A DNA stretch of 64,000 nucleotides from an uncultured candidate division WWE3 bacterium (GTDB lineage Bacteria; Patescibacteriota; WWE3; UBA101185; UBA10185): contig CAIRNR010000007.1 of NCBI GenBank assembly GCA_903879985.1, forward strand, positions 346,880-410,879. The letters run 5' to 3'. Each line of letters starts with the position of its first letter. Positions within the stretch are counted from its first letter, which is position 1. Position numbers: made by a program. Shown piece by piece: positions 21,001 to 27,000 of the stretch.

Positions 21001-24000
21001 TCCACAGCTAATTTTGCAGAGTAATTCGATTTACCATTATTTTCCAAAACGCCTGTAATTTTTACAATTTCACCAACTGATGCATTTTTATTACATATAA
21101 GCTCTTTTAGATCTCCGCTTTTATTTAAATCTCCAACCTTAACTATTTCAAAAACCAAATTTTGTTCTTTTAAGAGGGTATCGTCACGATATGCCGAAAT
21201 TTTAGCCCAATACTGATCCTTGCTCAATTTAGTAGGAACCGCAAGCGAGATATCTCCTGTCTTAAACGACGCTACAGAACCCATTTCAGTAATATCACTA
21301 GATTCCAACAGTTTTAAATCTAATTTATCAAGAACTTCAACGTGAACTTTTGTGGGACGCGCTGCAACATTGCCCGTATTGTTTATAGTTAGCGAAACAT
21401 CTAGAGGAGATCCTTCTTCAATGTTATGAATTCCAATTGAGGAAACGTCATACGCCAATATTTGGTCTCCGGTCACAGTAAAATCTGTTTGGATTAACGA
21501 AGATAAAGCAGTTGAGGCACCATTGCCACTCGTTGCGTTTGAAGCTTTGGAAGAGGATACCATGCGTATTCCTCCTTTATATTCACCGGTTGCAGCATCT
21601 TTTGGAACATCTACCAGAACGGTTATTGGAAATCTTTGCTGTCCCGCGGGCATAGTAAATTCCATACCCTTATCTAATGTTACCCAATCCTTTGCAGGAC
21701 CTTCCAGAGTTACTTTAAAATAAAAGTCTTGTGTAGGATCACTTCTACTTAGAACAAAAGTGCTTTCCACATGTGATCCTTTTGATAAGTTAGACGAAAT
21801 CATTTGTGACGGACTAATTCCCAGTCCGGCAAACACGGTCTTTGCAGTAAAAATAAGGAACGCATATGTAATTATTATTGTAATAATTTTAGAGTTTTTT
21901 ATTTTCATAAATTATATTGCCGTAAAAACAATTGTTCCTTTACAAGAACCACCAACACCATTTATAGGCAAACCAAAACCCCAATAAAGATCCTTTTCAG
22001 TTGCAAGGTCTGTGCGTTTATCAATGGTGAAACCTTCTATTACTGAAGCCATATTAGAAATGGAAATTTTATCTGCGTAAGGTGTTTCCGCGGTTGTATT
22101 GTATTTCTCATATGCAATTCCAATATCCCCATGTGTACAAGCCATGGACATACCGTCATTACCAATTAACCCAAATCCATAAATCTGAACACCAATTGAA
22201 GTATTTCCAGTATTGGTAATTGTTGTAGAAGTCTCCCAATCACCTGTATCGGTGTTCAAAGCCATCTCACCAAAATTTAAAGTATCGTTTACCTCAAGAG
22301 CTCGAAGCTTATTTATCTTAATTGTGGTCGAATCAGCAGTTCCCCCTGTAGGAATTACTTCGGCTGTCCACTCAGATGGATCAGCATAATACCAAACCGG
22401 TATCGTTGCGGTGTATGTTGCTGTCATTCCAATACAGGGATTTTGAACTATCACGTGTTGCGTATCCACAGTGTAGTGGTCATTATTATTATCCCCGGCG
22501 TCGTCACCAACAGTTGTGTTATAAAATACAACAGTTACCCCAGAAATGTTTTCGCAAGCTTCTGCAGTGTCCGCGGTAACAACCGCCGTCACAACTACAT
22601 CAGTAGTTGTTCCTTCTGTAAGAGATATTGCTGACTCACCTGAATTTATACTTACATTACTAGCTTTTGGAAAATTATCTTCAGCATAAACTAAATGTGA
22701 ATATAACAACACAAATAAAATAAACACCACTGATACATATTTTTTAAAAATCATGCCGAAACCCTCAAAAACACTTTCATAGAATATTATTATTTTCTTA
22801 TAACAGAACTTCCTCGGCGGAGAGTTATAGTTACTCCCCGCCCAAAAATAAATTACTACGCGAGCATCACAAAACTATATCTGGATCGGCGTAAACACAA
22901 CCGTTCCTGAACAAGTTCCCGTAACACTAGAAGAAGGCATTGCTAGGCCCCAATAAAGCGAATCAGTAGAAGCAGTACCAGTTGTTGTCTTTGGAAGAAC
23001 AAAACCATTCCCAACCGAAACTGCTGTACCCGTTAAAGCATGTGTCATGGAACCATAAGTCATGCTGTCCACGTCATACATTTCGTTTGCAACAGGAATA
23101 CTTCCGGTAGTACAAGTCATTGCGGTTGTTGCTGCTCCACTATTAACCTGAGGACCAATTTGAGCATTTCCGGTATTGGTTACTACTGTGGTTTGATTCA
23201 CCCCTGCGGTGTTTCCACCTAAAGGTATTGTTCCATATGCAATCGTTGAAGTTACATTAAGTGCAATCAATGTTGCCATTTCAATAGTATCGTTAGTACC
23301 TGCTGTTCCGACCCCCTCATCATGTGGAATCACTTGAGCAGACCAGTTGTCGGCGGCGTAAACTGCACCTACATCCGTTGGATCCGCATAATACTGAACA
23401 GGAATACTTGCTGTATAGTCAGCCGATAGATCAGAGGAATCAGTACAAGTTCCTGCAACTAAAGTTGCCGTAGCTGTATAACAGTTATTTGCATTACTAG
23501 AACAAGAAGCAGTTACCGCTGTCCTGAATAACTTAACGTCAACCTCATCAATATCAGCGCAACCATTAGCATCAAAAACTGAAGCACTAACAGTTACAGT
23601 AGTAGGAGTGTTTTCCGCTAAAGTTACTGTGGCATCGCCATTGTTTATGCTTACATTACTTGAGATAGGAGCTACATTACTAACATTTGCTGTTGCTGTA
23701 ACTGTATCTGTTGAACCGTGCACATAAGCTCTTAAACCATCCATACCGTTTGCTAGATAAATATACCCACCGTAACCCCAAACCCCTTGGTCAAAAGTGT
23801 GTGAATAATTAGAATCGTTACCCTCACGATTCACACCAACATAGTTAAAGGAAGTTCCATTAAAGGTATAAGTTCTCAAACTATCCCAATCAACCGACAG
23901 GTAGATGTAAGAACCATCTCCCCAAACTGTAGTGGCACTGTTACCACCCGTAGTAACACTTCCGACTTTGGTAAATGCAGAACCGTTAAACGTATAGGCA

Positions 24001-27000
24001 ATAAGCCCCGCTTCCGCTTTGGCATAATAAATGTACGCACCATCACCCCATATGCTGTTTCCTTGGCCATCTTCTGCGTCTGTAATAGTAGCTTTTTGAG
24101 TAAACGTTGTTCCATTAAAGGTATATGCCGTTAAAGCACCAGAATAATCGGCCGTGTAAATGTAACCATTTGCACCCCAAACTCCTACGACATTAGTACC
24201 AACAGGAGCAACATTTCCCTTAGCGGTAAACGTTGTTCCATTAAAGGTATATGCTCTCAAACCATCAGTATCGTTGGCCAGATATATGTAAGTGCCGTCA
24301 CCCCAAACTGCAGTAGCATTGCCATCACTTCCACCCTCGTGAACAGTATCCTTAAGCGTGAAAGTCGAAGCGGCATATGAATAAGCACGTAAGCCATCCG
24401 TGTTATTAGCAACGTATATATTTGTACCATCCCCCCAAACATCGTAAACCTCGGCCCCAGGGTCAAGATGACCACCTGCTGTAAATGTTGTGCCGTTAAA
24501 GGTATATGCACGTAATTCACCGTAATCTGCCAAATAGACATTAGTGCCATCACCCCAAACTTTGTAAGCAGTACCTGCAGTATTTACCCAACCAACGTTG
24601 GAAAGAAACAATGGATCAGCTGCTGCTTGCACAGGTTTTGCCAGGAAACTAAGACTCAATATACCTACACATAAGGCTATTACCACGGAGAAAACGGATC
24701 TAGTTTCTATTTTTTTAATCATATCTTTTCACCACCTTTCAATTAAATTTATTACCAATAAAAAAAGCTCAAACGAAATTCGTTCGAGCTTCAGGAGCCT
24801 CTCAGTTTTTTACTAAATATTAAGTTAACGTAAGTCTAGGAGTACTATTTTTCTTTGTCAACCTCAAACATTAGGTTTTTTAACTACCCACCCCATGACT
24901 CTATAACCGATAAATTCACCAAAATCATCAAAACGTGGTGTAAAATATAAATCATTATAAGTAAGCGTGCCCTTAGAATTGTTACCACAATCTTGTTCCA
25001 CGCGATAAGGTTGTGCTAGAGAAGAAAAATGCTTGAAAGTTTCTTTAGAAACATCACGAGTAGTTGCGGGTAAATAATCAAAATAGTTTTTACCCAAAAC
25101 ATCCTTTGGCTTAAACCCAAATATTTGTTCAACAGAAGGACTGGTATATACGTTAATGCCATTTTTATCTAAATCAATATAATAATCACAAACGTTATCT
25201 ACAAATTTAGGAATTTTCTCAGCCACAAGCTTTTCATCACTAGTATTGTTCTTCAAAATAGCCGAAACCCAAAGAAGTTTTTCACCAGTATTGTCATTAA
25301 ATAGTTTAATTAATACTAGTATAGGTATCTTTTTGCCTTCTTTAGTTTGATGAAATGTATCAAGCTGAAAATAACTAGATTCCGTTAAAGGAAACTCCGA
25401 AGTCAAAAACTTTTCACCTAATTCCTTAGGAATTACAGGATAAATTTGGGTGAAAAACTTACCAACCAATTCATCAGTTGAATAACCAAGAATGATACAA
25501 GCCGATTCGCTCGCATTGATGACGACACCCTTATCATTAATTAATAAAAGGTAATGCCTTAAATCGTCCGCATGTTTAATTTGACCTATTCTACTTAACT
25601 CACCACAACGCCTACACTTAATTTCCAAAGAGCCATCAAATAGAATGCCCTTAAACAATAGCTTGCCACATTTGCAACGATATTCATTCTCTAATATTAT
25701 TCTCATAAATAGATATATAAAAAAAAATTAGGGAGCTTCAAGAGCTTCGATGCATATAAGCTATATAAAATATAGCATAATGTGTGAGTCAATAAAGACT
25801 TTTTGTTGAAACCATAAAGACACAGTTGGGAAAGACTATACTCTAGGTTACATACAGCATAAAATATGCTAAAATCCAACACAATAGACAAATAACCGCT
25901 AAAAAAAGGAGAAACAAAATGCCGGACGTATTCATTTACGCCAAAGAAGGAATTGTATATCTGCAGGTGGAAAGGCGATTAGCAGACATCTCTGATGTCA
26001 TTGCGGTCAGTATATCTGAGCCTTTAGGAAAAAAGCACGCGCAGATTAAAACGCGCATTATTTCGGTACAAGCAGGACCAACCGTGGCAGACGTGCATAT
26101 AGAAGTACGCACAAGCAGCAAAGAATCGGCTTCACAGCGAAAATTAAGACAGTTAAGCACATTAACTGCATTGATTAATACCTGGCAGTATTTGCAGAAT
26201 ATTCAAAAATTTGTCGGGGTCAAAAAAGTGGATGCCACCGTGGAAATCTCTACTAGCGATTGGGCTATGCTTTTTGAAGAAACCCAGCCATAAAAAGTCT
26301 ATTACAAAAAGGCGTTTGGATTCATTAGAACCATGCGCCTTTTCTTTTTCCATAAGAGTTACTGTATACTGTTTTTATGGCGACAATATATATAACAGAA
26401 GCATTTGATGCCGAAAATTTTGAACGTGAAACTATAAAATCGGTGGATACGATATCCAATCACATCGTTGGACATATTATTGATGACTTTACACAAGGGT
26501 TAGAAGAAGGAATGAGTTTAGAAAACGGTACATGGGGATGGGTCGATGCTATTTTGTATGATCTTCAAGAACCCGTTGAAAATCCCGAGCACGAAATAAT
26601 TAGAGGTACATTAATAAAAACCCTTTCATATCTTTCTGAATATAATGGCCGATTTACAAAAGAGTTTGGTCGCGATGACCCAATGTTTTTTGGATACTTA
26701 ACGCCTGCAGAGTTAAAAGAATTACAAAATATTTTAGAAAAACTTCCATCTGATATCGACAAGGGATATTTGTTAGAGTTTAAAGAACAGTTAGTGGGTA
26801 TGGCTGAAGTTTGTAAGAAAAGTAATTTAGGTATTCTTTTTTCCGCTTTGCCCTAATCAACGCTAACTCTCAATGAGCTATAGGTTGATATTTTATCTGG
26901 GAAAAGTTATAATCCGAACAATTAATCCATAAATAAGGAGTTGGAAATGACAGACAGTTCAATGTTTAAAGAACTACAAAAGCTCGGGCATCCCAGCGTT

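Follow-up and report, generated by a model that had tools for sequence, protein, structure and literature searches.

A conserved three-gene surface-protein module of Patescibacteria and DPANN archaea with the layout of a WxL cluster

The WxL, or Csc, clusters of the Bacillota encode a small WxL protein, a large WxL protein and a WxLIP protein, the latter composed of DUF916 (PF06030), DUF3324 (PF11797) and a transmembrane (TM) segment in an immunoglobulin (Ig)-Ig-TM arrangement (Siezen 2006; Hassan & Williamson 2022/2023, PMC9772566, PMC10599100). The small WxL protein consists of the domain alone, and one WxLIP with two WxL proteins is the commonest type of cluster; WxLIP reportedly associates with the two WxL proteins, and in AlphaFold2 predictions a strand of DUF916 inserts into WxL (PMC9772566, PMC10599100). 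The WxL domain carries two Trp-x-Leu motifs on adjacent antiparallel strands, ∼68 residues apart in the large and ∼106 residues apart in the small proteins, with the second motif at the extreme C-terminus, and the small protein is a single domain of ∼180 amino acids (aa) (PMC9772566). Here we describe a run of genes in a 64,000-nucleotide (nt) stretch of contig CAIRNR010000007.1, from an uncultured candidate division WWE3 bacterium (the whole stretch is referred to as the window), that contains a conserved three-gene module; in our best reading, this module would represent a version of the WxL cell-surface complex in Patescibacteria and DPANN archaea.

The module lies on the minus strand, within a run of genes whose 615-aa, 280-aa, 406-aa and 424-aa products we designate A, B, C and D respectively. 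Genes A and B are separated by 120 nt, C begins 3 nt past the end of B, and C and D overlap by 4 nt. The features of main concern are given below, where L007 is a related locus from the comparison that follows.

22875-24722, minus strand: gene A, 615 aa; open reading frame (ORF) encoding a signal peptide, a candidate 7-bladed LVIVD-like propeller and the C-terminal shared domain; the 'large' subunit, in first position.
24624-24722, minus strand: putative signal peptide of A, residues 1-33, MIKKIETRSVFSVVIALCVGILSLSFLAKPVQA; read by eye from a basic n-region, a hydrophobic core and a cleavage-type site between VQA and A.
23703-24614, minus strand: propeller region of A, residues 37-340; from a motif scan and a MAFFT alignment of the units.
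22878-23669, minus strand: shared C-terminal domain of A, residues 352-615; from BLASTP against B and the match to the first gene of L007.
21912-22754, minus strand: gene B, 280 aa; ORF encoding a signal peptide (residues 1-24) and then the shared domain only; the 'small' subunit, in second position.
20688-21908, minus strand: gene C, 406 aa; signal peptide, three Ig-like beta-sandwiches, TM helix and a KKRKGSK tail; WxLIP-like candidate anchor, in third position.
20700-20777, minus strand: TM helix of C, residues 378-403; C-terminal, before the KKRKGSK tail.
19417-20691, minus strand: gene D, 424 aa; ORF with a C-terminal hydrophobic segment; a second TM-anchored surface protein, syntenic in L007.

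An earlier note on this DNA had pointed to blocks of sequence common, in the same order, to the C-terminal part of A and the whole of B. All of the quoted blocks lie in register in a BLASTP alignment of A residues 352-613 with B residues 29-280 (36% identity, 51% positives, E=3e-34), and the Smith-Waterman score of 378 for the two proteins compares with 52 +/- 7.8 for 300 shuffles of B (z=42), which confirms the observation. The divergence is evidently old, because similarity at the DNA level survives solely as a few short collinear patches (39 nt at 77–79%, 69 nt at 68%). The description of A and B as surface proteins also agrees with what the locus encodes, in that each has a putative N-terminal signal peptide and the neighboring proteins C and D both end in a TM helix followed by a basic tail.

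The A/B pair and C recur together in other genomes. Using hidden Markov model searches over all fetched loci, we found two B-family genes (those encoding the domain shared by A and B) accompanied by a C-family gene in nine loci, and one B-family gene with a C-family gene in two. Their products are as follows, the B-family lengths being given in gene order.

Window: B-family proteins of 615 and 280 aa; C-family protein of 406 aa.
L006 (Parcubacteria DG_72): B-family, 316 and 302 aa; C-family, 412 aa.
L007: B-family, 301 and 300 aa; C-family, 414 aa.
L010: B-family, 765 and 370 aa; C-family, 293 aa.
L012: B-family, 1659 and 314 aa; C-family, 327 aa.
L013: B-family, 2293 and 316 aa; C-family, 329 aa.
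L022: B-family, 445 and 310 aa; C-family, 307 aa.
L023: B-family, 319 and 289 aa; C-family, 308 aa.
L015: B-family, 326 and 303 aa; C-family, 476 aa, with its gene before the pair.
L014 and L021 (both Woesearchaeota): one B-family and one C-family protein each.
L011 (Nanoarchaeia): two B-family proteins; no C-family protein detected.

Throughout these loci, N-terminal cargo is present in the first gene only and the second gene is short, with small and large forms lying adjacent in the window and in L010, L012, L013 and L022. The domain of A is 54% identical (E=6e-70) to the product of the first L007 gene, a stand-alone protein of 301 aa, and B is 56% identical to the product of the second, whereas A and B share 36–37% identity with each other; similarly, the first genes of L012 and L013 group together, as do their second genes. 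Because the paralogues resemble the genes at the same position elsewhere more than they resemble each other, the duplication predates the splits between these lineages. C is better conserved than either A or B, with 67% identity to its L007 counterpart and 49% to that of DG_72. Judged by these sequence comparisons, the A/B pair looks like two copies kept as distinct subunits of a conserved multi-component module rather than the product of a recent expansion, and the earlier interpretation is partly supported: the homology of the domains stands and both proteins look like secreted surface proteins, but local duplication and diversification is not supported.

The domain shared by A and B, ∼260 aa in length, defines a large family. 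Searches of Pfam and NCBIfam assigned neither A nor B to a family and gave no consistent result across 25 relatives, and a sequence search of the PDB with both profiles returned nothing meaningful; residues 344-615 of A match the A1 profile with E=2.7e-85. A word-indexed search recovered only 25 relatives of the domain, and an exhaustive profile search of 1.84 billion representatives recovered 2,552 at E<=1e-3, 915 of them at E<=1e-30. In 166 of the 171 members examined, no more than 15 residues separate the end of the domain from the C-terminus; of the 171, 76 are stand-alone (a signal peptide and the domain) and the other 95 have N-terminal extensions, 70 exceeding 300 aa and 22 exceeding 1000 aa. 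The cargo in these extensions is very varied and includes FG-GAP propellers, LamG/Laminin_G_3, DUF2341, Kelch-like and PKD-like segments, and glycine-rich regions. An AlphaFold2 model of B (predicted local distance difference test, pLDDT, 86.7; predicted template modelling score 0.77) consists of two tandem beta-sandwiches, residues 30-147 and 150-280. Residues conserved in the family include four cysteines (C67, C107, C206 and C271), which probably form one disulfide in each sandwich, together with YYADP, W129, T-N-T-G-N, Y-W-G-F-G-x-P and a terminal G-T-V-V-F-T-A strand. The named sources are Patescibacteria (Parcubacteria, Paceibacterota, Staskawiczbacteria) and DPANN archaea (Woesearchaeota, Nanoarchaeia).

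Some further observations concern this family. One source is a metagenome-assembled genome (MAG) labelled Gammaproteobacteria; its locus, L015 (CAYHRJ010000021.1, 2596-6380, 'uncultured Gammaproteobacteria'), has a C-family gene followed by two B-family genes and PAS/response-regulator genes, and its label could reflect either a misbinned patescibacterial contig or horizontal transfer. A sequence identical to B was found on metagenomic contigs of up to 715 kb, and the nearest named relatives of B are in Patescibacteria/Parcubacteria MAGs. One family member, P0147, has an FG-GAP propeller fused to the shared domain. In Foldseek the B model is matched best by the integrin alphaV ectodomain (E=9e-7, template modelling (TM)-score 0.32), and integrin alpha has a comparable layout of a propeller and Ig legs; this resemblance is probably convergent.

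The candidate anchor, C, has a structural model (pLDDT 82.7) with three sandwiches at residues 29-145, 153-256 and 265-364 and a helix at 378-403, between a signal peptide and a basic tail; the short C-family members (293–329 aa) have only the first two sandwiches and the TM helix. C thus has the signal peptide, tandem Ig-like sandwiches, TM helix and basic tail of a WxLIP, with one sandwich more, and it also has a WxLIP-like context in adjoining two proteins with a common C-terminal domain. The WxL clusters used for profile comparison with hhalign were authentic ones, recovered from Enterococcus, Bacillus and Listeria plasmid records. Full-length C matches WxLIP with 94% probability, a value that is inflated by the signal peptide and TM helix and was discounted; with the ectodomains only the probability is 53%, and with a broader C profile the ectodomains match at 85% (E=6.5e-6), in an alignment of 200 collinear columns that extends across both Ig domains. 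Controls gave 0.1–0.5% for reversed WxLIP and 9% for the B-family sandwich. Pfam DUF916 matches none of 19 + 9 C-family members, and WxLIP_HBD matches one of 19 at E=0.0016, below confident assignment. DUF916 has the N-terminal motif NQIDKxxxYFDLK (PMC10599100); NQIDK and YFDLK are absent from the C family, in which the mature N-terminus reads A-G-[LF]-G-[IV]-S-P-[SP] and then L..GS. We conclude that C is probably, though not certainly, a remote homologue of WxLIP. Sortase anchoring of C, to which the sequence LPTA before the TM helix had drawn attention, was rejected, as an LPXTG-like motif is not conserved in 23 other family members.

The shared domain itself was compared with WxL in the same way. 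Pfam WxL (PF13731) gives no match at E<=1 to A, B or 25 family members, and hhalign of a 172-sequence profile of the domain against nine small WxL proteins and four large WxL C-termini gives probabilities of 0.1–0.3%, where small against large WxL, as a positive control, gives 96.6%. The dual WxL motif is also absent: W129 (W-T-A) and W258 (W-G-F/L) are 129 residues apart in different sandwiches, and the C-terminal G-T-V-V-F-T-A strand has no Trp. On these profile comparisons the shared domain is not a detectable WxL domain, yet it fills the same architectural slot, being placed, like WxL, at the extreme C-terminus of both the small and the large protein of one cluster; this likeness is architectural and is no proof of homology. 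The wider likeness extends to the presence of three secreted components, among them a domain-only small protein and a large one with variable N-terminal binding domains and the same C-terminal domain; to an anchor protein with a signal peptide, two Ig domains, a TM helix and a basic tail; and to the large-small-anchor gene order, as in Listeria and E. faecalis. The differences are the size and fold of the shared domain (∼260 aa, a double beta-sandwich with four well-conserved Cys), the third Ig domain of C in this lineage, the absence of an LPXTG partner and of a sortase, and the hosts of the module, which are Patescibacteria and DPANN archaea and not Bacillota. A search for literature linking WxL, DUF916 or LVIVD to Patescibacteria or the candidate phyla radiation gave nothing relevant, and no description of the three-gene module was found in the searchable literature.

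About eight tandem repeats of ∼42 aa had been noted at the N-terminus of A; the repeats are present, but a motif scan and MAFFT alignment give seven full units, starting at residues 55, 95, 139, 181, 224, 266 and 314 with a period of 40–48 aa and the motif VWGDG.YIY.A...GL.AYTFNGT.F, plus an N-terminal half-repeat. Seven-bladed propellers are usually closed by an N-terminal strand. A 7-bladed LVIVD-type beta-propeller would fit the N-terminal half of A, and the half-repeat would close it in this way, since residues ∼39-54 are similar to the tail half of a unit, the part that is missing from unit 7. Comparison of the A DNA with itself by blastn shows several units ∼75% identical over ∼60–95 nt, and Tandem Repeats Finder (TRF) reports no DNA tandem array in A. 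Pfam gives no matches to A at E<=1, including to the LVIVD family (PF08309), although the best homologues of its N-terminal half (41–56% identity, from many lineages) bear PF08309 or are named LVIVD repeat proteins and the ∼42-aa repeat period is that of these beta-propeller proteins. Among the matches listed, none covers more than 64% of A, that is, propeller and domain together, except P0026, which is a fragment of A itself. The propeller would be a lineage-specific insertion between the signal peptide and the shared domain, and what had been described as an 8x repeat array is better regarded as a structural element added in this lineage (the L007 counterpart of A, at 301 aa, has no propeller) than as a variable repeat tract.

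How might these proteins work together? We favor a model, to which we assign a probability of roughly 0.5, in which the shared domain serves to dock A and B on C, with A displaying its propeller as a binding head. A and B are predicted Sec-secreted proteins with neither a membrane nor a wall anchor of their own, and C is a type-I membrane protein whose Ig-like ectodomain would serve as the docking platform. The shared domain would hold A and B non-covalently on this ectodomain, possibly by beta-strand augmentation of the kind that AlphaFold2 predicts for WxL and WxLIP; B would be the bare partner, and A would project its 7-bladed propeller outward as a ligand- or host-binding head. The analysis establishes the homology and the age of the A/B pair, its conserved proximity to C, the C-terminal placement of the domain behind variable cargo, the modelled folds and the remote similarity of C to WxLIP; binding of A and B to C, their display at the surface and adhesion by the propeller are inferred. 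Protein-protein docking to C is a more plausible common principle than wall binding, because the family is also present in archaea, which have no peptidoglycan to bind. Protein D provides another hint: its residues 51-235 share 45% identity (E=1e-37) with residues 246-423 of P0156, which belong to the N-terminal cargo of this long B-family member from another metagenome. One genome thus gives this head a TM anchor and the other joins it to the shared domain, which would make sense if that domain offered a second way of attaching to the surface.

A fibre- or pilus-like assembly resembling the products of tip-shaft-base pilus operons, in which the shared domain polymerises, with B as the shaft, A as the propeller-bearing tip and C as a membrane base or assembly chaperone, is in our view unlikely. 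Its appeal lies in the two-domain tip adhesins of chaperone-usher pili (FimH, CsuE and CupB6), which likewise have two tandem beta-sandwiches and give weak Foldseek matches to B (E 5e-5 to 1e-3). The TM-scores to these pilus adhesins are however low (0.2–0.34), generic Ig proteins score equally well or better, and sequence similarity is lacking. The monomer model of B has two complete sandwiches, predicted with high confidence, and mature B begins ∼4 residues before the first strand and hence has no N-terminal donor-strand extension; C is membrane-tethered, unlike periplasmic chaperones, and no usher, sortase or dedicated ATPase is encoded in the window cluster, L006 or L007. Donor-strand polymerisation of the chaperone-usher type was for these reasons (the missing extension of B and the absence of usher and chaperone genes) given little weight.

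We consider it quite unlikely that A and B are independent paralogous Ig-like surface or secreted proteins, adjacent through tandem duplication and diversifying as adhesins under host or phage pressure, which was the view taken in the earlier note. Homology of the adjacent genes and the highly variable cargo of the family would both be expected of such proteins, as would the third long family member found near the module in L012 and L013. That view does not readily explain a pair that existed before the compared lineages separated and whose members are orthologous by position, nor the constant asymmetry by which only the first gene bears cargo, the lack of an anchor in both A and B, or the retention of the neighbor C, which at 49–67% identity is more conserved than the paralogues themselves. 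It is very unlikely that the module is a true WxL system diverged beyond sequence detection, the whole cluster being homologous to the Csc/WxL clusters of Bacillota, for although C is apparently homologous to WxLIP and cluster composition and gene order are the same (PMC10599100), profile-profile probabilities are below 1% as against 96.6% for small and large WxL, the shared domain lacks the first WxL motif and comprises ∼260 aa in two sandwiches as against ∼180 aa in one domain for small WxL (PMC9772566), and 25 members lack a Pfam WxL match even at E<=1.

Attachment to host cells is the way of life of cultivated Patescibacteria and of many DPANN archaea, and to our knowledge the molecules responsible, type IV pili aside, are largely unknown. 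As first stated, a pair of adjacent surface genes with a common domain, one of which has repeats, would be an ordinary finding; the wider module is more than that, being a conserved, widespread and unannotated candidate for attachment with a swappable head, a common docking domain and a membrane anchor. If docking on C proves true, the domain would provide an annotation handle for thousands of 'hypothetical' surface proteins, the N-terminal cargo could be read as an indication of host or ligand specificity, and the WxL/WxLIP principle would reach Patescibacteria and, independently of peptidoglycan, archaea. We tentatively suggest, at somewhat short of an even chance, that the shared domain is an undescribed docking domain specific to Patescibacteria and DPANN, with more than 2,500 clusters, that plugs diverse heads (propellers, LamG, PKD and giant multi-domain arrays reaching more than 3,000 aa) onto a WxLIP-like anchor, forming a general system for surface display and host attachment of ultra-small episymbionts that is tied through its anchor to the WxL complexes of Bacillota.

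The genes on either side of the module are as follows.

24864-25706, minus strand: 280-aa protein encoded upstream, combining a Com-like zinc ribbon with two PAS domains, from Pfam; candidate regulator.
17263-19411, minus strand: downstream genes for a 313-aa dCache protein, a 232-aa protein and a 167-aa MG2-like protein, in the same tightly packed run and all syntenic with L007.

Pfam identifies PAS_9 (E=1e-16) and Zn_ribbon_Com (E=1.9e-4) in the upstream protein, whose zinc ribbon reads YRC..C...IEIKC.RC; at the same position in L006 there is a 102-aa homologue (7339-7647) with the zinc ribbon only, and it is possible that the zinc-ribbon/PAS protein is a dedicated regulator of the module. 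Genes for PAS/histidine-kinase proteins and response regulators flank the module in L006, L007, L015, L021 and L022, and together with the upstream zinc-ribbon proteins these flanks suggest that expression of the module is regulated. Pfam matches in the downstream genes are dCache_1 (E=9e-14) and MG2 (E=5e-7), and clusters 6–8, which comprise these genes, are common to the window and L007.

A strong promoter-like site (TTGACA-17-TAGACT, 24861 to 24833, minus strand) lies between the stop codon of the zinc-ribbon/PAS gene (24864) and the ATG of A (24722). It is followed, still upstream of A, by a 13-bp hairpin with a T-run (24792 to 24764, minus strand) that could either terminate the upstream gene or serve A as a leader or attenuator. 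Just past the stop of A, the A-B intergenic region (22816-22842, minus strand) contains a GC-rich stem of 9 bp, GGCGGGGAG / CTCTCCGCC, that encloses a loop of 9 nt and lacks a T-run; this stem might set the A:B expression ratio or stabilise the mRNA.

In three of the other loci (L006 11215-12633, L022 8996-10468 and L023 8893-9940) the module is followed by small dockerin-like repeat proteins, accompanied in L006 and L023 by a TM-anchored protein of ∼240 aa; these may constitute a second display pair, of the cohesin-dockerin type, which is absent from the window. Elsewhere, the window, which has a GC content of ∼37%, encodes DnaG, MutS, MutL and SufB, which mark it as bacterial, as well as a 950-aa ORF (31195-34047, minus strand) with no Pfam match at E<=0.01. 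ARAGORN predicts a tRNA-Ser with anticodon ACT at 51650-51737 (minus strand), an anticodon that is unusual for bacteria, and a tRNA-Ser(GCT) at 62494-62581.

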